Source: Gammaproteobacteria bacterium (GTDB lineage Bacteria; Pseudomonadota; Gammaproteobacteria; SZUA-152). Taken from it: a DNA stretch of 64,000 nucleotides. Shown in pieces: positions 1-48,035 of the stretch. The translations under genes were made by a program, and so were the position numbers. The notes under the pieces were generated by a model. The model worked only from the letters and a program-made list of their open reading frames with translations, ran no database searches and had not been told where the DNA came from. How positions within the stretch are numbered: the first letter of the stretch is position 1; each line of letters starts with the position of its first letter. The stretch is taken from positions 4,118-68,117 of the forward strand of contig DROS01000019.1 in assembly GCA_011321815.1 (NCBI GenBank), in the 5' to 3' direction.

Positions 1-106
1 TCAGTGTTTATGAACGTTTTTTTTCTTTTTGGCGCCATGCTCATGTACCTTTGTTGTACCTGTTGCTGTTTAGTGGTGTGGTGCATGTGATTGCTGTGCA
101 TATGTA

Positions 107-1741
107 TTGAATGGCATGTTTTTACCAAGGATAATTTTTGTTGTCGGGGTAATGCTGTTTATCGCTGTACTGAACTACGTGCAGGCGGGAATGCTGGATT
201 CGATGGAGAAGGCGTTAATGCCGGGTGAACTTTCCGCAGCTCATGCCCGGTTTGAAAATAATTGCACAGATTGCCACAAATTATTCGGACAGGAACAACA
301 AAACCGCTTATGCCTGGATTGTCATGATCATAAAAATATCGCTGGAGATATTAAAAACGGAAGGGGATATCACGGGCGTATTCCTGATGTAAAAAACAAG
401 GAATGTCGTGTTTGTCATTCAGAACACAAAGGACGGCAGTATTCCATCGTGCTACTGGATAAACAGGCTTTTGACCATCGTTTAACCGATTTTCCCCTGC
501 GTGGACGACATGGTGATGCACCCTGTCAGGCTTGCCATAAAAACAATAAAAAAACCGGTAAAGCAAAACCTTATCACCAGGCGCCGAAACAATGTGTCAA
601 GTGTCACAAACCTGATGATGCGCATGATGGACGCCTGGGAAAACAGTGCGGTAGTTGCCATACACAAATGCGCTGGCAGAATTTTCGCTTTGATCATGCG
701 ACGACCAAGTTCAAGTTAAAAGGAAAACACAAAGGTGTGGAATGCCGTTTATGTCACCCGCAAGAACGTTACAGTGGTGTGCCCGGAAAATGTGTTGCCT
801 GTCACAAAGGTGATGATAAACACAAAGGGCGCTATGGTAAAAAATGTCAGGACTGTCACTCAGTATCTGGCTGGGGAAGCCAGAAATTTGATCACAACAA
901 GGATACGGACTATCCGCTGAAGGGGCGACACATGTCGGTGACCTGCCAGCAGTGCCATCGCAGCGAAGGCTTTAAAGTCTATGTGAAGGAAAACACGAAG
1001 AAGAAAAATAAAAAATCAACTACGGATTGTTATGCCTGTCACCGTTTACAGGACGAACACAAAGGGCAATACGGGCGTAAATGTCACGCTTGCCACACGG
1101 TGAAAGCCTGGAATAAATCTACGTTTGACCATAAAAAAACAGATTTCCCGCTGAAGGGAAAACATAAAAAAGTGGCCTGCGGTGATTGTCACCCGGGTGT
1201 GCTTTATGAAGAAAATTTAAAAACGGACTGTTTTTCCTGCCATCGACAGGACGATGTACATCATGAAAAACAGGGGAAAAAATGCCAGGAATGTCACAAT
1301 GAAGAAGGTTGGCGGCATAACGTTAATTTTGATCATGATTTGGTGAAATTCCCATTATTGGGTGCCCATGTAGCACTGGCATGCGAAGAGTGCCACGATT
1401 CCGGAAGTTTTAAGGACACCAAAGCATCGTGTTTAGCGTGTCATAAGGGCAATGATGTACACGAGCGCAGTCTGGGAGCGCAATGTGATGTGTGTCATTA
1501 CGTGGGCGACTGGAAGGCCTGGGAGTTTGATCATGATAAACAGACAGATTTTGAGCTGGAAGGTAAACACAAAGGCATTGTCTGTAAGGCCTGCCACCGG
1601 GAACCTGTGAAGAACGAGATGGATATGCCCAATGATTGTCAGGATTGCCATTTGCAGGATGACGCACATGACGGAGAGTTTGGGCGTCGCTGCCAGCGTT
1701 GCCACAATACGGAATCTTTCTCTGAAATAAATATGCGGTAA
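107..1741 (+). CDS. Secreted multihaem c-type cytochrome with 21 CXXCH motifs, built from repeated c7-like triads (FDH..CxxCH / CxxCH / DxHDGxxGxxCxxCH). It has an N-terminal signal-anchor helix. The true start may be the ATG at 116.
   Basis: I counted 21 CXXCH motifs in the translation. They fall into a periodic three-haem pattern with extra conserved His, like polymerised cytochrome c7. The N-terminus MFLPRIIFVVGVMLFIAVLNYVQA is hydrophobic. Coordinate 107 is a TTG and an ATG lies at 116. Confidence 0.85.
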   Translation: MNGMFLPRIIFVVGVMLFIAVLNYVQAGMLDSMEKALMPGELSAAHARFENNCTDCHKLFGQEQQNRLCLDCHDHKNIAGDIKNGRGYHGRIPDVKNKECRVCHSEHKGRQYSIVLLDKQAFDHRLTDFPLRGRHGDAPCQACHKNNKKTGKAKPYHQAPKQCVKCHKPDDAHDGRLGKQCGSCHTQMRWQNFRFDHATTKFKLKGKHKGVECRLCHPQERYSGVPGKCVACHKGDDKHKGRYGKKCQDCHSVSGWGSQKFDHNKDTDYPLKGRHMSVTCQQCHRSEGFKVYVKENTKKKNKKSTTDCYACHRLQDEHKGQYGRKCHACHTVKAWNKSTFDHKKTDFPLKGKHKKVACGDCHPGVLYEENLKTDCFSCHRQDDVHHEKQGKKCQECHNEEGWRHNVNFDHDLVKFPLLGAHVALACEECHDSGSFKDTKASCLACHKGNDVHERSLGAQCDVCHYVGDWKAWEFDHDKQTDFELEGKHKGIVCKACHREPVKNEMDMPNDCQDCHLQDDAHDGEFGRRCQRCHNTESFSEINMR

Positions 1742-1789: not shown

Positions 1790-4048
1790 ATGAAAATCAG
1801 GAATTGTTTAACACAGCATGTGTTGCTGCTGGTTACTTTGTGGTTGCTATTGCCTGCATTGAGCATGGCTGCGCCAAAACAGGATTTTGACCATTTTGAG
1901 ACGGGCTTTCCCTTGTCCGGCCAGCATCAGACGGTGCCTTGCGCCGCCTGTCACTTGCGTGGAGTCTTCAAGGGAACGCCATTGACCTGCAACGGTTGCC
2001 ATAATGGTTCCATTGCACCCGGCAAGCCGGATCGGCATATCGCCAACACAGAGACTTGTGATGATTGTCATACCATCTTTGCCTGGCAGGCTGCGGCTAT
2101 GGATCATTCGTCTGTGACAGGTTCATGTACGCAATGCCACAATACCCGTTTGTCTGCGCAGCATATTCAAACCCGTGCCCAGTGTGATGAATGTCATGGC
2201 ACAGTGGGTTGGTTGCCTGCGAGATTTACGCATGATGCTGTATCGAAAAATTGCAGCAATTGCCATAATGGGATAACAGCAAAGGGAAAATCCGCGAACC
2301 ACATTCAGACAGCGGAGCAGTGTGATGGCTGTCATAACACTGTGGCCTGGTTACCCGCCCGCTTTGATCACGGAAGTGCGACGGGTTCATGCAGTAGTTG
2401 CCATAATGGAACGACGGCGACCGGGAAACACAGTGCTCATGTGACAACTTCAGGCGAGTGCGAACTTTGCCATGCGACGACAGCCTGGTTGCCTGCAACC
2501 TTTAATCACAGCTCATTCAGTGGCGCCTGCAACAGCTGTCATAACGGCGTGACGGCTACCGGTAAATCCGGCCGTCATTTACAAACCACATCTGATTGTG
2601 TTGATTGCCACAGCACCAATGCCTGGTTACCGGCAAATTTCTCACATGATGGCATTACGGGAACATGCAGTTCTTGCCATGACGGTGGTATTACGTCGGG
2701 TAAATCAAGTAATCATATTCAAACCACTGGCGAATGCGACGTGTGTCACAGCACGAATGCCTGGTTACCCACCCGCTTTGATCACGGCAGTGCGACGGGT
2801 TCATGCAGTAGTTGCCACAATGGAACGACGGCGACCGGGAAACACAGTGCTCATGTGACGACTTCAGGCGAGTGTGAACTTTGCCACAGCACGAATGCCT
2901 GGTTACCCGCCCGTTTTGATCACGGCAGCGCGACGGGTTCATGCAGCAGTTGCCATAATGGAACGACGGCGACCGGGAAACACAGCGCCCATGTGACGAC
3001 TTCAGGCGAGTGTGAACTTTGCCACAGCACGAGTGCCTGGTTACCCGCCCGCTTTGATCACGGCAGTGCGACGGGTTCATGCAGTAGTTGCCATAATGGA
3101 ACGACGGCGACCGGGAAACACAGTGCTCATGTGACAACTTCAGGCGAGTGTGAACTTTGCCACACGACGACAGCCTGGTTGCCCGCAACTTTTGATCACA
3201 ACTCGTTCAATGGCGCCTGCAACAGCTGCCACAACGGTGTGACGGCTACCGGTAAATCCGGCCGTCATTTACAAACTACATCTGATTGTGTTGATTGCCA
3301 CAGCACCAATGCCTGGTTACCGGCAAATTTCTCACATGATGGTATTACCGGAAGGTGCAGCTCTTGTCATGATGGTGGTGTTGCGCTGGGCAAATCCGGC
3401 ACTCACATTCAAACCACTGGTGAGTGTGATGTCTGTCATGGTACCAATGCCTGGTTGCCTGCCCGCTTTGATCATGGCAGTGCGACAGGTTCATGCAGTA
3501 GTTGCCATAATGGAACGACGGCGACCGGGAAACACAATAACCATGTGACGACTTCCGGGGAATGTGGAGTTTGTCATACAACAACGGCGTGGTTGCCTGC
3601 AATCTTCGATCATGATTCATCAAGCGGCCTTTGTAACAGTTGCCACAATGGAGTGACGGCAACGGGCAAGGCCGATAATCATTTCATTTCATCCAGGCAA
3701 TGTGACGAATGCCATACTACACAGAGCTGGACATCGGTACGCTATAACCATGTGGCGATCGGCTACCCAGGTGGCCATAATGGTTTGTCATGCAATGGAT
3801 GTCACAAAGGAAACAGCGAATCTTCAGTCTGGGAAAATCCTGGCTACAAACCTGATTGTGCAGGTTGCCATGCGGATGACTGGGAAAGTGATGAACATAA
3901 AAAAACGAAAAATCCACGCACCATTTTTTATACCATCAGTGAATTGCGTGATTGTTCATCATCATGTCATGAGTACACGGACAACACGTTCACGACTATT
4001 AAAAAGAGACGTAACAGAGAACATAGCCCGAATGGCGGAGATTTTTAA
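1790..4048 (+). CDS. Secreted giant multihaem c-type cytochrome with about 29 CXXCH plus one CX3CH. It is made of about 14 tandem 46-aa di-haem modules. The signal peptide is MKIRNCLTQHVLLLVTLWLLLPALSMA.
   Basis: The ORF track starts at a TTG at 1754. An ATG at 1790 is preceded by AGGTGA and followed by a classic Sec signal peptide. The translation is a string of modules WLPxxF[DNS]H-x5-CxxCHNGxTAxGKxxxH[IV]xTxxxCxxCHxTxA. Confidence 0.85.
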   Translation: MKIRNCLTQHVLLLVTLWLLLPALSMAAPKQDFDHFETGFPLSGQHQTVPCAACHLRGVFKGTPLTCNGCHNGSIAPGKPDRHIANTETCDDCHTIFAWQAAAMDHSSVTGSCTQCHNTRLSAQHIQTRAQCDECHGTVGWLPARFTHDAVSKNCSNCHNGITAKGKSANHIQTAEQCDGCHNTVAWLPARFDHGSATGSCSSCHNGTTATGKHSAHVTTSGECELCHATTAWLPATFNHSSFSGACNSCHNGVTATGKSGRHLQTTSDCVDCHSTNAWLPANFSHDGITGTCSSCHDGGITSGKSSNHIQTTGECDVCHSTNAWLPTRFDHGSATGSCSSCHNGTTATGKHSAHVTTSGECELCHSTNAWLPARFDHGSATGSCSSCHNGTTATGKHSAHVTTSGECELCHSTSAWLPARFDHGSATGSCSSCHNGTTATGKHSAHVTTSGECELCHTTTAWLPATFDHNSFNGACNSCHNGVTATGKSGRHLQTTSDCVDCHSTNAWLPANFSHDGITGRCSSCHDGGVALGKSGTHIQTTGECDVCHGTNAWLPARFDHGSATGSCSSCHNGTTATGKHNNHVTTSGECGVCHTTTAWLPAIFDHDSSSGLCNSCHNGVTATGKADNHFISSRQCDECHTTQSWTSVRYNHVAIGYPGGHNGLSCNGCHKGNSESSVWENPGYKPDCAGCHADDWESDEHKKTKNPRTIFYTISELRDCSSSCHEYTDNTFTTIKKRRNREHSPNGGDF
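2348..3727. repeat. Intragenic tandem array of ten 138-bp units, each encoding one 46-aa di-haem module. There are three variants, A, B and C. Units at 2762-2899, 2900-3037 and 3038-3175 are near-identical. The 414-bp block A-B-C at 2348-2761 is duplicated at 3038-3451.
   Basis: Direct reading of the sequence. The string tggttacccgcccgctttgatcacggcagtgcgacgggttcatgcagtagttgccataatggaacgacggcgaccgggaaacacagtgctcatgtgac recurs with only a few substitutions. Confidence 0.8.
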
Positions 4049-4079: not shown

Positions 4080-6170
4080 ATGAGAGGTTTTCGGTTTTGG
4101 TGTCAGGTGATGGGAGTATACTTCGCAGTATCTTCCCAGGTCTGGGCATTGCCAAATCAATCACTGGAAAGTATTGAATATCTGACTCATCAAGGGATGG
4201 CTGCGATAGAAATTGGTTTTGCCCAACCAGTGATTTACATGTCGAATTTTCCGCTGGAATCTGGTGCAACGCTACAAATTTTTATCGGGCCGCGCACTGC
4301 TGTGGATGTCGATGTGGATAAGCTTCCTTATACCCAGGCGATGCGCGCACCAGATTCCGGTGAGATACCGCTGCGGCAAGTGACATTCCATATTAACGAA
4401 GCCGGTGAAACCTCCATTGTTGTGGATTTTAAGCGGGTGGTGAATTTTACGATATCGGCTGGTCGTCGTTTTAACACGTTGATGATTGTTTTTCCGGAAT
4501 TGAGAATCACGCAGGCGGTACCGTTGAAAAAAGCACGTACTGTGGAGATAGTTGACAGCAAAGCTTTCAGGTTGCTGGTGTCGGGGCGCAAGGCTCTCAA
4601 GCAGCATAAAAACAAAATGGCTATTCGTATTTTTACCGGGATGCTGGAATTGCCCGAAAGCCCGGAACGACAGGAGGCAATGGAATTGTTGGGAGTGGCA
4701 CGGGAACGCAACCAGCAAAAGGCACATGCCAGGGCCATGTATCAGGAATACCTGAAGCAATACCCAAAGAGTGAAGGCGCGGCACGGGTCAAACAGCGGT
4801 TACAGGATTTATTGCATGCACAGTTAAAACCCCGGGCGAAACTGAAACCCATCAAGAAATCAAAGGACAGAAAAACTACTTCACGTATCTATGGCAGCTT
4901 TGCCCAGTATTATTATCATGGTGAAAATAGCGTTGAAAATGCCGGTAGCTCGGTGGATCAATCCTTGTTATTGAATCAATTGTCTGTTAATTGGCGTATT
5001 CGTAATGCCGACTATGATATTCGCAACTTTGTTTACACCAACCAGAGTTATGACTTTTCCAGTGAGACAGGTAAGGCAGTGACTCTGGAGACGGCGTATA
5101 GTCAATTTAAAAACAGCCGCTGGGGTTTTTCGGGTCGTGCTGGTCGGCAAACCGGCTCCGGCGGTGGCGTGTTGGGTAAGTTTGACGGATTACGCGCCAG
5201 TTATGATGCTACACGAAGAATCGCTGTGAATGCTGTGGCGGGCTATCCTGTCAATATCAGTGACAAACGCAGTATTCAATCACAAAAACCTTTTTGGGGA
5301 ATCGGCTTTGAATGGGATGGTGAGGGCAAAGGTGTTGATATCCTACCTTATTATATCCAACAGAAGGTAGATGGCATTATTGACCGTGAGGCTATTGGTA
5401 GCGAATTCAGATTTTTTCATGAACAAGGGAATTTTTACGGACTTATTGACTATGATATTCATTATGCGGACCTGAATATTTATCTTTTTCGTGGCCAATA
5501 TAATTGGCGAAAAAATACGATTTTTAACCTGAATCTTGATTATCGAAACAGCCCTTTATTGTTTACCTCTCATGCCTTGATTGGGCGTACGGATGTGTCG
5601 AGCATTGGTGAGTTACTGAATGTGCATAGTGAACGCAGTATTAATGAATTAGCAGAAAGCCGTGTGGGTGATTCAAGTACATTTTCATTGGGCGTGAGCC
5701 ATACCTTAAGTACACGTTATCAACTTAATGCAGACCTGACATTTGCCAGACAGAATTTTATCATCGACGGTGTCACGCCGGGCGTTTTAATCAGTGAGAA
5801 TGACCAGCAAATTTATTTTTCCGGTCAGCTTATTGCCAACAAATGGTTTAATGATCGTGATACCAGTGTGCTGGGTATGCGTCTCTCGCAGACCGGTAGC
5901 TATGATGAACTTTCGTTATCCGCCTCTAACCGGTTACTGTTGAACAATAAATGGAAATTCGACACCCGAATGCGCGTTGATTTACGTCAAGGTAATTCAG
6001 GTGAAGATTTAACCAGATACCGTCCTTCAGTGAAATGGAATTTCCGTCACAATCAGACGATGTATTACGAAACGGAAATTGGTGTGGAATGGTGGCGTTA
6101 TGGTGGCGATTCCAATAATCCTGATTTTCGACGGTTGTTTGCTAACGTAGGTTATCGCTGGGATTTTTGA
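4080..6170 (+). CDS. Outer-membrane beta-barrel protein of 696 aa. The N-terminal ~250 aa form a periplasmic, partly helical TPR-like region. The C-terminal part is a large beta-barrel ending in the beta-signal ...NVGYRWDF. It is a candidate porin or translocon partner of the two cytochromes.
   Basis: The signal peptide is MRGFRFWCQVMGVYFAVSSQVWA. The C-terminal 450 aa are rich in alternating aromatic/hydrophilic dyads and in Asn, Tyr and Gly. The protein ends in a terminal Phe with an x-Y-x-W-x-F pattern. The gene lies immediately downstream of the cytochromes, 32 nt away. Confidence 0.6.
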   Translation: MRGFRFWCQVMGVYFAVSSQVWALPNQSLESIEYLTHQGMAAIEIGFAQPVIYMSNFPLESGATLQIFIGPRTAVDVDVDKLPYTQAMRAPDSGEIPLRQVTFHINEAGETSIVVDFKRVVNFTISAGRRFNTLMIVFPELRITQAVPLKKARTVEIVDSKAFRLLVSGRKALKQHKNKMAIRIFTGMLELPESPERQEAMELLGVARERNQQKAHARAMYQEYLKQYPKSEGAARVKQRLQDLLHAQLKPRAKLKPIKKSKDRKTTSRIYGSFAQYYYHGENSVENAGSSVDQSLLLNQLSVNWRIRNADYDIRNFVYTNQSYDFSSETGKAVTLETAYSQFKNSRWGFSGRAGRQTGSGGGVLGKFDGLRASYDATRRIAVNAVAGYPVNISDKRSIQSQKPFWGIGFEWDGEGKGVDILPYYIQQKVDGIIDREAIGSEFRFFHEQGNFYGLIDYDIHYADLNIYLFRGQYNWRKNTIFNLNLDYRNSPLLFTSHALIGRTDVSSIGELLNVHSERSINELAESRVGDSSTFSLGVSHTLSTRYQLNADLTFARQNFIIDGVTPGVLISENDQQIYFSGQLIANKWFNDRDTSVLGMRLSQTGSYDELSLSASNRLLLNNKWKFDTRMRVDLRQGNSGEDLTRYRPSVKWNFRHNQTMYYETEIGVEWWRYGGDSNNPDFRRLFANVGYRWDF

Positions 6171-7421: not shown

Positions 7422-8078
7422 TTACTTGGCAAGTTGCATCAGTTGATTTGCTTTTTCTTTACTCAACCACTTCCAGGGTAACGGAATCAGTCCGGGTACC
7501 TGTCGGCAGTATTCCTCATAGACTTCTCCGTAATGCGCAACCAGTTTGCGTTCCTCCATATGTGAGCCGATCACAAAATAAGCGCTGATCAGGCTGTATA
7601 CAACCAGTTGGACAAGATGCAGGTCTTGCGTCCACAAAATAACCAAAAAAAAGGAATACCAGGGATGGCGCACAAAACGGTGCAGGGTAGAGATGTGCAG
7701 GGCGTCGGGGTCAGTGCTGTCTGTGTGCCGGTTGCGCCACTGGGTGATTCCCAGAAAGACTCCGTTATCGTAGGATTTCAGTGACCAGACAAAGCCAAGT
7801 ATGGCTGCAACCATTAACCCTTTCATCAACCAGCCTGCCAGTCCCGGCCATTGCCAGACCAATGGCCCCGGATTCTGGTGCATAAACCAGAGCAGGGGGA
7901 TCAGCAGGATCACCGCGAGAATATTATATGCAAGCCGATAGGCGGGCATTAATCCGGGCCATGTGTGCTGTACCCAACGTTTGAACCACAATGATGCCAG
8001 CAGGGAATGCAGTACAAAATAGGCGATGAAGCTAATCCCCAGAGGAACCAGGGACCAGAGGATGTCGTTATCTGTCAT
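7422..8078 (-). CDS. Integral-membrane methyltransferase of the ICMT/PEMT (isoprenylcysteine carboxyl / phospholipid methyltransferase) family.
   Basis: The protein has multiple transmembrane helices. Its C-terminal motif is RHPWYSFF...EE..L...YG..Y..Y...VP..IP, typical of this family. I placed the start at an internal Met (MTDNDILW); the ORF track extends to 8150. Confidence 0.55.
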   Translation of the reverse strand: MTDNDILWSLVPLGISFIAYFVLHSLLASLWFKRWVQHTWPGLMPAYRLAYNILAVILLIPLLWFMHQNPGPLVWQWPGLAGWLMKGLMVAAILGFVWSLKSYDNGVFLGITQWRNRHTDSTDPDALHISTLHRFVRHPWYSFFLVILWTQDLHLVQLVVYSLISAYFVIGSHMEERKLVAHYGEVYEEYCRQVPGLIPLPWKWLSKEKANQLMQLAK

Positions 8079-8304
8079 AAGTGTAGATATTTGATTTTTG
8101 TGAGCAATAGTCGATACTTGGCGTGGTCGCCGCTTCAGAATGACAAGCACATATACCTGTCGCGTTCGAAGTTTGGGCCTTTAGAGGGTGCCCTGTTTAT
8201 TTTCGTGCAGCTATGAAATGACGAGGGTATGCAATAAAGCCGAAATCTCAAATGCTACGGGTATAGTATACAAACAACAGCATAACAGTATAAAGGTGAA
8301 TACA

Positions 8305-46386: not shown

Positions 46387-47019
46387 ATGAATACTTCCAT
46401 TACAAAATTTGAGCACAATGCCACCAGCGTTCAGCAGGTTCAGCCGAAAATGCTCAAGGTGTGGGACCCGTTGGTGCGCATATTTCATTGGTCATTGGTG
46501 AGCGCCTTTTTTATCGCTTATTTCACCGAGGATGATTTGCTGGATCTGCACGTTTATGCCGGTTATCTGATTGGTGGGTTGTTGGTTTTCCGCTTGATCT
46601 GGGGTTTCGTGGGTAGCCGCCATGCGCGGTTTTCTGATTTTGTGAAACGCCCCCGCGAAGTGTGGGCTTACCTGAAATCCATTATCGCCCAGCATCCACG
46701 ACGCTATCTGGGACACAACCCTGCCGGTGGCGCCATGGTGATTGCTTTGCTGTCATCGTTGGTGCTGGTGACGATAAGCGGTATCGCCCTTTATGGCGCA
46801 GATGAATCTGCCGGACCATTGGCTGCCAGTCTGACCGGGATGAGTGAATTTTGGATTGGTGTGTTGGAAGACGTGCATGAGTTTTTTGCCAACGCCACGT
46901 TGACACTGGTGTTCTTCCATGTGCTGGGTGTGTTGATAGCGAGTTTTCAGCACAAGGAAAATCTTGTGAAGTCCATGGTGGATGGCCGTAAATCGGCTGA
47001 CGAAGAAGGTGTGGCATGA
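46387..47019 (+). CDS. Cytochrome b561-family membrane dihaem b-type cytochrome.
   Basis: It has four TM helices with conserved His (IFHWSL..., FFHVLGV). It is the first gene of a six-gene module. Confidence 0.8.
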   Translation: MNTSITKFEHNATSVQQVQPKMLKVWDPLVRIFHWSLVSAFFIAYFTEDDLLDLHVYAGYLIGGLLVFRLIWGFVGSRHARFSDFVKRPREVWAYLKSIIAQHPRRYLGHNPAGGAMVIALLSSLVLVTISGIALYGADESAGPLAASLTGMSEFWIGVLEDVHEFFANATLTLVFFHVLGVLIASFQHKENLVKSMVDGRKSADEEGVA

Positions 47020-47429
47020 AAACGGGGTGTGAAGTATTGCGCAAGGGTTTGCTCATTTTGTCTGTCACCGTGCCACTGGCCGGCCAGGCGTCTGTGGTGG
47101 ATGAGCGGCAGGCCGCCTATCGGGCCAGTGGGGCAGGGCCATTCAGTGCGCAAAAAGGCGGGCAGTTATGGCAGCGGGAAGTGGTGAGCACGAAAGACGG
47201 TCGTGCCCGCAGTTGTACCACGTGTCATGGCAATGATTTGCGCAGCACTGGCAAACACACCAAAACCGGCAAGGTCATCGAGCCGCTTAGTCCGGCAGTC
47301 AATGCTGAACGTCTGAGCAGCGCCAAAAAAATCCGCAAATGGTTTAAACGTAATTGCAAATGGACCTGGGGGCGTGAATGCACGCCGCAGGAAAAAGGCG
47401 ATCTGTTGAGCTTTATTCGTCATCAATAA
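47016..47429 (+). CDS. DUF1924-type periplasmic monohaem c-type cytochrome.
   Basis: It has a signal peptide and a single CTTCHG motif. Its start overlaps the upstream stop (ATGA). Confidence 0.65.
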   Translation: MKTGCEVLRKGLLILSVTVPLAGQASVVDERQAAYRASGAGPFSAQKGGQLWQREVVSTKDGRARSCTTCHGNDLRSTGKHTKTGKVIEPLSPAVNAERLSSAKKIRKWFKRNCKWTWGRECTPQEKGDLLSFIRHQ

Positions 47430-47453
47430 TGTTGAAATGCAAAGGTCATTATC

Positions 47454-48035
47454 ATGAATAACAGTAAAAACAAAACCTGGAGTATTGTATTGAGCATGGG
47501 TCTCGTATTGGGGCTCATCGGTGTCAGCGGGCTGGTGCTCAGTGATGACGATGATGAGTACGAAGGCAACGGCCGATGGCGTCAGTCCCGACTGGATGTG
47601 GCGCCGGTGAACAATGCCTTTTATAAAGAAGAGTGTGGTTCCTGTCATTTTCCCTATCAGCCAGGTCTGTTACCAGCCCGTTCCTGGCAAAAGTTGATGG
47701 GTGGATTAGAAGATCATTTTTCTGAAAATGCGGAACTGGATGCTGCTGACGCCCGGCAACTCACGGCCTATCTCACAGCAAACGCGGCAGATACGTCTAA
47801 CTACAAGCGGTCGCGGGGTATCAGCCGTTCATTGGCTAAAGATGATGTTCCATTGCGCATCAGTACCACACGTTATTTCAAGCGCAAGCATCACGAGCTT
47901 TCTGCACGCATGGTGAAAAACAATCCCGAGGTGCGTTCATTCAGTAATTGCCAGCTTTGTCATACACGAGCGGCGCAAGGCGCCTATAATGAACATCAGG
48001 TGAAAGTGCCGGGTTATGCCGGATGGGATGATTGA
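47454..48035 (+). CDS. Dihaem cytochrome c (DHC family).
   Basis: It has a signal peptide and two CXXCH motifs (CGSCHF, CQLCHT). Confidence 0.7.
   Translation: MNNSKNKTWSIVLSMGLVLGLIGVSGLVLSDDDDEYEGNGRWRQSRLDVAPVNNAFYKEECGSCHFPYQPGLLPARSWQKLMGGLEDHFSENAELDAADARQLTAYLTANAADTSNYKRSRGISRSLAKDDVPLRISTTRYFKRKHHELSARMVKNNPEVRSFSNCQLCHTRAAQGAYNEHQVKVPGYAGWDD

Follow-up and report, generated by a model that had tools for sequence, protein, structure and literature searches.

The stretch of DNA considered here is 64,000 nucleotides long (positions 4,118 to 68,117 of contig DROS01000019.1, assembly GCA_011321815.1) and is called the window below. It comes from an uncultured hydrothermal-vent gammaproteobacterium. 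Near its beginning lies a gene for a 752-residue multihaem cytochrome (MHC) that consists almost entirely of tandem modules, each with two haem-binding motifs. The gene stands in an operon between a 21-haem cytochrome and an outer-membrane barrel protein. By gene order, motifs and properties, the operon matches the description of a PCC3-type porin-cytochrome complex, and the 752-residue protein is probably the outer, variable-length cytochrome of that complex.

The gene and its product

The reading frame starts with an ATG at 1790 and remains intact over 752 codons to a stop codon at 4046-4048. The sequence AAAGGTGA precedes the ATG at ribosome-binding-site spacing. The protein begins like a signal peptide, in which cleavage, read by eye, is likely between SMA and AP; AlphaFold2 places a helix at residues 5-24. 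Counted from this predicted cleavage site, the mature chain has 725 residues and only one methionine. The whole protein holds 61 cysteines and 67 histidines and is rich in threonine (12.7%), serine (11.3%), glycine (10.2%) and alanine (8.3%).

Several open reading frames of 85-165 residues, in other frames or on the minus strand, overlap the gene (window 2226-3662, for instance 2691-3188 minus). These frames, too, are repetitive; they arise as by-products of the 138-nucleotide DNA repeat described below and are not genes. Rfam and tRNA scans of the whole window gave no match.

Table 1. Features at the start of the window, with positions in the window
Feature	Position	Strand	Basis or remark
3' end of the gene for the PCC3 inner-membrane protein (300 residues)	1..110	+	Rest of the gene upstream of the window, L001 7419-8321
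Partner cytochrome with 21 CXXCH, PCC3 'periplasmic MHC'	107..1741	+	Gene caller start 152, 529 residues
Cytochrome with 29 CXXCH and one CX3CH, PCC3 'extracellular MHC', 752 residues	1790..4048	+	Reading frame, haem motifs, Pfam, homologues
Signal-peptide-like N-terminus, residues 1-27 (MKIRNCLTQHVLLLVTLWLLLPALSMA followed by AP), no lipobox	1790..1870	+	Sequence reading
N-terminal cap (residues 28-98, three CXXCH) and shortened 42-residue module (residues 99-140)	1871..2209	+	Conserved in orthologues L005-L007; family consensus
Eleven canonical 46-residue di-haem modules, residues 141-646	2210..3727	+	Each made of two 23-residue H-x6-CXXCH half-units
C-terminal cap, residues 647-752, three haems (Y-P-G-G-H, CNGCH, CAGCH, CSSSCH)	3728..4045	+	Sequence, orthologues, consensus
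Outer-membrane beta-barrel, PCC3 'porin', 696 residues	4080..6170	+	AlphaFold2, Foldseek

Haem motifs and modular architecture

The chain carries 29 CXXCH motifs and one variant, CSSSCH (CX3CH, at residue 722). This bears out an earlier interpretation made without database searches, referred to here as the sequence-only reading, which had counted about 29 haems in about 700 residues. Arithmetic from the protein's own cysteine and histidine content gives a chance expectation of about 0.5 motifs. The spacing between successive CXXCH motifs is exactly 23 residues in 25 of the 28 intervals. The cysteine of the variant motif, C722, is at least 90% conserved across 90 homologues, and the family consensus at this site is C-x4-CH.

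The architecture consists of 12 modules, 11 canonical and one shortened, and two caps with three haems each. Every canonical module has two CXXCH motifs and two additional conserved histidines. The sequence-only reading was thus right about the di-haem array, and its figure of about 14 repeats has to be replaced by 12 modules plus the two caps. The consensus of the module is W-L-P-A-x-F-[DSN]-H-x6-C-x-x-C-H-[ND]-G-x-T-A-x-G-K-x3-H-x-x-T-x3-C-x-x-C-H-x-T-x-A. Sixteen of its positions are invariant in the 11 canonical copies: W1, L2, P3, F6, H8, C15, C18, H19, G21, G26, K27, H31, C38, C41, H42 and T44. The two motifs of the shortened module are spaced by 19 residues.

At the DNA level, Tandem Repeats Finder reports periods of 138 and 276 nucleotides. 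The modules fall into classes: those that start at residues 187, 325, 371, 417 and 555 belong to class A, those at 233 and 463 to class B and those at 279 and 509 to class C. In DNA, the class A copies share 83-97% identity (93-95% for the modules at 325, 371 and 417), and their amplification is therefore recent. Because these last three modules are nearly identical and the data are a short-read metagenome assembly, the module copy number may be off by one or two. An identical protein is found on the ENA contig k127_428594, which may come from the same reads and is therefore not an independent confirmation.

Within the array there are 23 residues per haem. Over the whole precursor there are 25.9 residues per CXXCH, and in the mature protein (725 residues, 30 haems) 24.2 per haem. 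The sequence-only reading called this one of the densest packings that can be encoded. That holds in general, but among its own relatives the protein is ordinary: in 52 related loci there are 25.2-47 residues per haem, the neighbouring cytochrome has 25.2, and published PCC3 cytochromes have 22-39, with a median of 26 (PMC5566968).

The same reading had taken the repeated NGT and NGS tripeptides as a hint of cellular location. They belong instead to a turn, CH-x-G-x-x-A-x-G-K, that is conserved throughout the family, and carry no information on where the protein is located. N-glycosylation of the NGT tripeptides can be rejected on this ground and on a further one, since a bacterial PglB sequon needs an acidic residue at position -2 and these tripeptides have none.

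Axial ligands and the repeat unit

A haem with two histidine ligands needs a second, distal histidine in addition to that of its CXXCH. In 25 consecutive motifs, from C90 to C638, a histidine lies exactly seven residues before the first cysteine, and every module shows it as F-[DNS]-H. In an alignment with 90 homologues these histidines are kept in 75 of 78 to 90 of 90 occupied rows. The caps offer further candidates: H35 and H46 at the N-terminus, and H654, H663, H703 and H745 at the C-terminus. Altogether there are 31 candidate distal histidines for 30 haem motifs, and no motif is obviously without a sixth ligand. A motif lacking one would have told against the sequence-only reading.

Since the histidine at -7 is present in 25 motifs and nearly 100% conserved, ligation of all the haems by two histidines is plausible. 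The regularity also means that the basic repeat is a 23-residue, one-haem unit (His-x6-CXXCH-x11) that alternates between two flavours. In cytochromes c3 and c7, the ligand of haem I is a histidine seven or eight residues upstream of its own CXXCH. By analogy with this arrangement, both axial ligands of a haem probably come from the 23-residue unit that binds it. When the module profile is aligned with the cytochrome c7 of Desulfuromonas, F-D-H falls on F-D-H17, in an alignment that is not significant. That the sites are occupied by haem, and which ligand belongs to which haem, are predictions here. The strict His-x6-CXXCH unit of 23 residues with a near-universal distal histidine is a new detail.

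Protein families and predicted structure

The best Pfam match of the 752-residue cytochrome is Cytochrome_C7 (PF14522), with 115.9 bits against a gathering threshold of 24.8. It also scores above the cut-offs of PF14537 (70.7 bits, cut-off 25) and PF02085 (50.6 bits, cut-off 22.9). These scores assign the protein to the cytochrome c7/c3 superfamily, with its ligation predicted. The Pfam search found no non-cytochrome domain, which together with the missing lipobox agrees with what had been read from the sequence.

A relation to Paired_CXXCH_1 (PF09699), which had been proposed for comparison, is borderline. That family resembles the array in having two CXXCH motifs about 20 residues apart, and a two-module fragment aligns with it from C15 to H42. 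The fragment reaches 19.7 bits (E = 6.8e-4), close to the gathering threshold of 20.6 but below it, and the full-length cytochrome has no match to the family even at E <= 10, so membership is rejected in favour of the clear match to Cytochrome_C7. Many homologues carry faint precomputed matches to Paired_CXXCH_1.

No solved structure represents the architecture of the array. The full sequence has no match in the PDB. A profile of the 46 module columns finds OmcE (7tfs) at E = 0.067 and a cytochrome c7 at E = 0.15, neither of them significant. AlphaFold2, run on an alignment of 91 sequences, gives a model without haems that shows a four-residue helix at each CXXC and otherwise almost nothing but coil, with no globular domain. 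Its mean predicted local distance difference test score (pLDDT) is 68.5 and its predicted template modelling score (pTM) 0.29. Foldseek finds no match to this model in the PDB, which is weak evidence because the model lacks haems, is nearly all coil and has such a low pTM. ColabFold models of other PCC3 cytochromes are long and mostly linear (PMC9900912).

The operon and its identification as PCC3

He et al. described PCC3 from genomes in 2017 as a combination of an inner-membrane protein, two MHCs, one periplasmic and one extracellular, and an outer-membrane porin (PMC5566968). The inner-membrane protein has about 300 residues and five transmembrane (TM) helices, with SGXXG in TM4 and WX3HX13H in TM3 and TM5. 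The median number of haems is 34 in the extracellular and 21 in the periplasmic cytochrome, both proteins are enriched in Thr, Ser, Ala and Gly, and their repeats each carry a haem site, for which a molecular-wire interpretation was proposed (all PMC5566968). The haem wire of the sequence-only reading agrees with this published interpretation.

Examples of PCC3 outer cytochromes are Slit_1448 and Slit_0868 of Sideroxydans lithotrophicus ES-1 and those of Leptothrix cholodnii SP-6 and of the Riftia pachyptila endosymbiont. In ES-1, one cluster consists of the membrane protein Slit_1446, Slit_1447 with 24 haems, Slit_1448 with 28 haems and the porin Slit_1449. The Riftia symbiont has an extracellular cytochrome of 39 haems with repeats every 23-24 and 46-47 residues, and its periplasmic partner has 21 haems in seven 66-residue repeats; the L. 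cholodnii porin has 22 strands (PMC5566968, supplementary figures).

The operon described here has the same order as Slit_1446-1449. All four genes are on the plus strand, in the order 300-residue inner-membrane protein, 21-haem cytochrome, 752-residue cytochrome and 696-residue beta-barrel, with gaps of at most 48 nucleotides (48 and 31 on the two sides of the 752-residue cytochrome). The gene after the barrel is on the opposite strand. A scan for promoters and terminators inside the operon found no convincing internal terminator and no informative signal.

The beginning of the first gene was recovered from the ENA hydrothermal-vent metagenome contig that encodes the identical cytochrome (PRJNA290104), which gave 8.2 kb upstream of the window. 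The encoded protein contains W102-H106-H120 (WLSVH-x13-H), S143-G-V-M-G147 (SGVMG) and W275-H279-H293 (WRHAH-x13-H). A hydropathy scan, which is not a topology predictor, shows five hydrophobic peaks at residues 34-50, 70-86, 103-119, 130-147 and 280-297. The WX3HX13H motifs fall on the third and fifth of these segments and SGXXG on the fourth, as in the published inner-membrane protein. Another membrane protein, of 242 residues (7422-8150, minus strand), was considered for this role and rejected, because it has no HX13H motif and resembles methyltransferases.

The two cytochromes also fit. With 29 (+1) and 21 motifs, 25.9 and 25.2 residues per haem, 46-residue repeats and a composition rich in T, S, G and A, they have the properties listed for PCC3. 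The partner cytochrome is composed of c7-like triplets, matches Cytochrome_C7 with 94.7 bits and, like its Riftia counterpart, has 21 haems in seven repeats of about 66 residues.

For the barrel protein, AlphaFold2 gives a model with a pLDDT of 83 and a pTM of 0.69. It consists of a signal peptide, a beta-sandwich (residues 29-138), a helical domain of TPR-like character (161-246) and, at 267-695, a barrel with about 22-23 strands that closes with YRWDF. Foldseek matches the model to outer-membrane porins and ushers, with E down to 5e-11. The TPR-like domain is similar to YbgF/CpoB, and in some homologues a SPOR domain is present instead or in addition. A layout of TPR domain plus barrel is known from exopolysaccharide exporters, which the protein recalls. 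Its N-terminal domains may anchor the complex to the cell wall or keep the periplasmic cytochrome in place.

The sequence-only reading had pictured a free soluble or filament-like protein. The conserved operon context, with a 21-haem cytochrome on one side and a barrel on the other, makes a subunit of a porin-cytochrome complex the better model. Within PCC3, the protein differs from the named examples in coming from a different lineage, a vent gammaproteobacterium, and in an unusually regular repeat with recent amplification.

Relatives and length variation

Homologues were surveyed with a word-indexed search, in which 3,398 proteins among 8,000 scored candidates reached E <= 1e-5. The best 120 of them have a median of 36 CXXCH motifs and a median of 29.7 residues per haem, with a minimum of 24.9. 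Outside the protein's own clade, the nearest database relatives are 43-46% identical. Eighty genomic loci were fetched, with an alignment of three membrane-protein sequences. They come from Gammaproteobacteria, Betaproteobacteria and others, and most of them show the four-gene order. The relatives include Dechloromonas, Sedimenticola, Methylococcaceae, Piscinibacter and clam symbionts; Sideroxydans ES-1 was not returned by the scan. The closest loci (82-86% identity) belong to metagenome-assembled genomes with the labels Gammaproteobacteria, Ectothiorhodospiraceae and Chromatiales, so that the host can be placed near Chromatiales/Ectothiorhodospiraceae.

The two cytochromes of these loci behave very differently. 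In 71 loci the partner has 21 haems in 49 cases and 24 haems in 18. The variable cytochrome has anywhere between 4 and 80 haems where the gene is complete, and at least 103 in one gene that is open at the end of its locus. The barrel gene directly follows the variable cytochrome in 40 of 52 complete cases.

The longest chains are of interest in their own right. The open gene lies in a soil Proteobacteria metagenome-assembled genome (CTSoil_122; L059 12623-20642) and encodes 103 CXXCH in 2,673 residues up to the point where the locus ends. Others have 80 (L057 12582-18932) and 66 (L077 9976-15258). The haem record quoted by He et al. 2017 is 85 (PMC5566968), which the 103 exceed.

Between close relatives, the variation can be traced to whole modules. 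The three closest orthologues (69-87% identity) have 23, 25 and 25 haems compared with 29 here, and their only differences from the 752-residue cytochrome are gaps in the array, each exactly 46 or 92 residues long. Length thus evolves in units of the di-haem module. Such whole-module insertions and deletions between close orthologues are a new detail.

Proposed mechanism

The reading preferred here, with a probability of roughly 0.75, is that the 752-residue protein serves a PCC3-type porin-cytochrome complex as its outer multihaem cytochrome, the one of variable length. The precursor would be exported by the Sec pathway and receive about 30 c-type haems in the periplasm. Each 23-residue half-module (a histidine, six residues and CXXCH) would supply one haem together with both axial histidine ligands. 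The 12 modules and two caps would then form one unbroken chain of low-spin bis-histidine haems, scarcely wrapped in protein. Haems in MtrA and GSU1996 are spaced at 0.8-1 nm per haem, so that a linear chain of 30 would measure about 25-30 nm.

One conserved end of this chain would dock at or through the 22-23-strand barrel encoded directly downstream. There it would exchange electrons with the 21-haem cytochrome encoded directly upstream, which in turn would connect to the predicted di-haem-b inner-membrane protein. The complex as a whole would carry electrons between the cell interior and an insoluble or extracellular partner. The linear shape and length of the wire are inferred, as are its place outside the cell, the direction in which electrons flow and the physiological substrate.

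The argument for an outer, unconstrained position is the length variation, because the partner is fixed at 21 or 24 haems while the variable subunit has from 4 to at least 103. The near-invariant partner suggests a ruler of fixed length that spans the periplasm. A fixed inner and a freely variable outer cytochrome would fit such a ruler combined with an unconstrained external wire, which is an argument rather than a demonstration.

Evidence for and against alternative explanations

Several points weigh against an outer wire. The term 'extracellular' depends on predictors used in the literature and on the argument from length variation, and the Sec-type signal peptide is the only export signal of the protein. 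Reading the N-terminal parts of the open reading frames in the 64-kb window, without a family-library search, brought no type II secretion genes to light. The structural model has moderate confidence and contains no haems, and the link to named PCC3 proteins such as Slit_1448 is by description, not by sequence alignment. In ES-1, both PCC3 clusters are down-regulated on Fe(II), and the extracellular cytochrome stands at the 0th percentile in every condition (PMC11429942, table). The function ascribed to PCC3 is a proposal in every organism. The export signal without a lipobox, the lack of recognised secretion-system genes among the unannotated reading frames and the 0th percentile in ES-1 would all suit a 'capacitor', an electron store or wire that stays in the periplasm and does not pass the outer membrane, with a barrel that serves another purpose or only lets substrate enter. 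Such a role has already been suggested in the literature. It is nevertheless unlikely, since homologues with 58 to at least 103 haems would, if linear, extend about 50-90 nm, far beyond the width of the periplasm, and since the partner is fixed at 21 or 24 haems and a barrel gene directly follows the variable cytochrome in most loci.

A self-polymerising extracellular filament of the OmcS, OmcE or OmcZ type would likewise be haem-dense, secreted and not a lipoprotein, and OmcE is the best, non-significant PDB match of the module profile. This is a very improbable explanation for the present protein, whose sequence and fold have no significant match to any nanowire cytochrome. Every motif has a candidate distal histidine in its own chain, so that neighbouring subunits need not contribute any; length changes through modules added inside a single chain; and the conserved context is a porin-cytochrome operon. 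It is just as hard to believe that the array is an artefact in which near-identical 138-nucleotide repeats were mis-assembled into a wrong number of modules or, in the extreme, a decaying non-functional repeat gene. The high DNA identity of class A modules and the use of short-read metagenome assemblies speak for it, but the frame is intact over 2.26 kb with every cysteine and histidine of the modules preserved, orthologues from three other assemblies have the same architecture and differ by whole modules only, and thousands of homologues exist. At risk is the number of modules and not the nature of the protein.

Comparison with other cytochromes

An example of a similar haem chain is the dodecahaem cytochrome GSU1996 of Geobacter sulfurreducens, which also has repeated c7-like units, an F-x-H ... 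CXXCH signature, about 24-27 residues per haem and an elongated row of haems. It was reportedly described by Pokkuluri and co-workers in 2011 as a chain of c7-type domains and a proposed wire. In contrast to GSU1996, the unit here is a 46-residue di-haem module (2 x 23 residues, each with one distal histidine) instead of a tri-haem unit of about 70-80 residues. There is also no H-x-x-H pair and no His-Met haem, and the predicted location is outer and not periplasmic. Membership in TIGR04257 (nanowire_3heme) was rejected, with a score of 26.7 below the cut-off of 40.

MtrCAB and MtoAB are similar in that a beta-barrel sheathes a haem wire, and there is an outer cytochrome. The 752-residue protein matches domains II/IV of MtrC/MtrF with 48.3 bits (cut-off 30), and its match to the DmsE/MtrA decahaem family is weak: the score of 80.5 for TIGR03508 is below the cut-off of 192.2, and membership is rejected. 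Unlike MtrCAB, the protein has 30 haems and not 10. It lacks both a lipoprotein anchor and MtrC-like flanking beta-barrel domains, and the barrel carries the additional N-terminal beta-sandwich and TPR-like domains.

The sequence-only reading had also proposed a comparison with the nanowire cytochromes OmcS, OmcZ and OmcE. Sequence and fold searches revealed no significant similarity to these filament subunits. The likeness, long-range electron transfer through c-type haems that are packed closely in an extracellular chain, is a functional analogy. OmcS, OmcE and OmcZ are homopolymers of subunits with 4-8 haems, and in OmcS neighbouring subunits share a histidine ligand, whereas here the length is encoded in one chain.

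Neighbouring genes and a possible larger circuit

A gene for an iron-sulphur (FeS) flavoprotein of about 435-445 residues lies roughly 0.95-2.3 kb upstream of the window start (L001 5938-7269, minus strand). The protein has an N-terminal membrane anchor, a basic stretch, a 2x[4Fe-4S] ferredoxin domain and a FAD/NAD(P)H oxidoreductase domain that resembles YpdA and thioredoxin reductase; most of it is predicted to lie in the cytoplasm. Its gene and the gene for the PCC3 inner-membrane protein form a divergent pair in 59 of 67 loci. On the cytoplasmic side it could be the protein with which the di-haem-b membrane protein exchanges electrons. Neither ferredoxin nor FAD is mentioned in the main text of He et al. 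2017 (PMC5566968).

Next to the flavoprotein gene, also upstream of the window, lies a gene for a Sel1/ankyrin protein (L001 2736-5525, plus strand). Proteins of this kind are 660-940 residues long; besides a signal peptide and Sel1 repeats they carry more than 12 ankyrin repeats, and homologues occur in 34 of 67 loci. In the periplasm, the protein could serve the giant cytochromes as a scaffold or chaperone. No link between PCC3 and ankyrin proteins came up in a literature search. Both neighbours are new details for PCC3.

The frequency of the two genes and the ferric-reductase-like nature of the di-haem-b protein are the basis for another, still doubtful suggestion: that PCC3 is larger and wired differently than described, as a split NOX/FRE-type module forming a quinone-independent electron-export circuit across the envelope. 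Electrons from cytoplasmic NAD(P)H would then cross the inner membrane straight into the 21-haem and 30-haem wires, and 46-residue di-haem modules, rapidly gained and lost, would tune how far the circuit reaches outside.

Further along the window, at 46387-48035 on the plus strand, are three small adjacent open reading frames for a 210-residue membrane protein, a 137-residue protein with one CXXCH and a 193-residue protein with two. These may possibly form a separate small respiratory module that is unrelated to PCC3.

Significance

The haem density, the repeats and the wire hypothesis were published for PCC3 in 2017, and current concepts are unchanged. PCC3 is widespread in Proteobacteria of iron-rich and sulfidic habitats, and its cytochromes are among the most haem-rich proteins known. 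For design and structural work, the protein described here is useful because it offers a clear minimal unit, a complete set of candidate distal ligands and close orthologues that differ only in whole modules. Should the protein prove to be a wire with an outer location, the number of modules would be a simple genetic dial for electrical reach.

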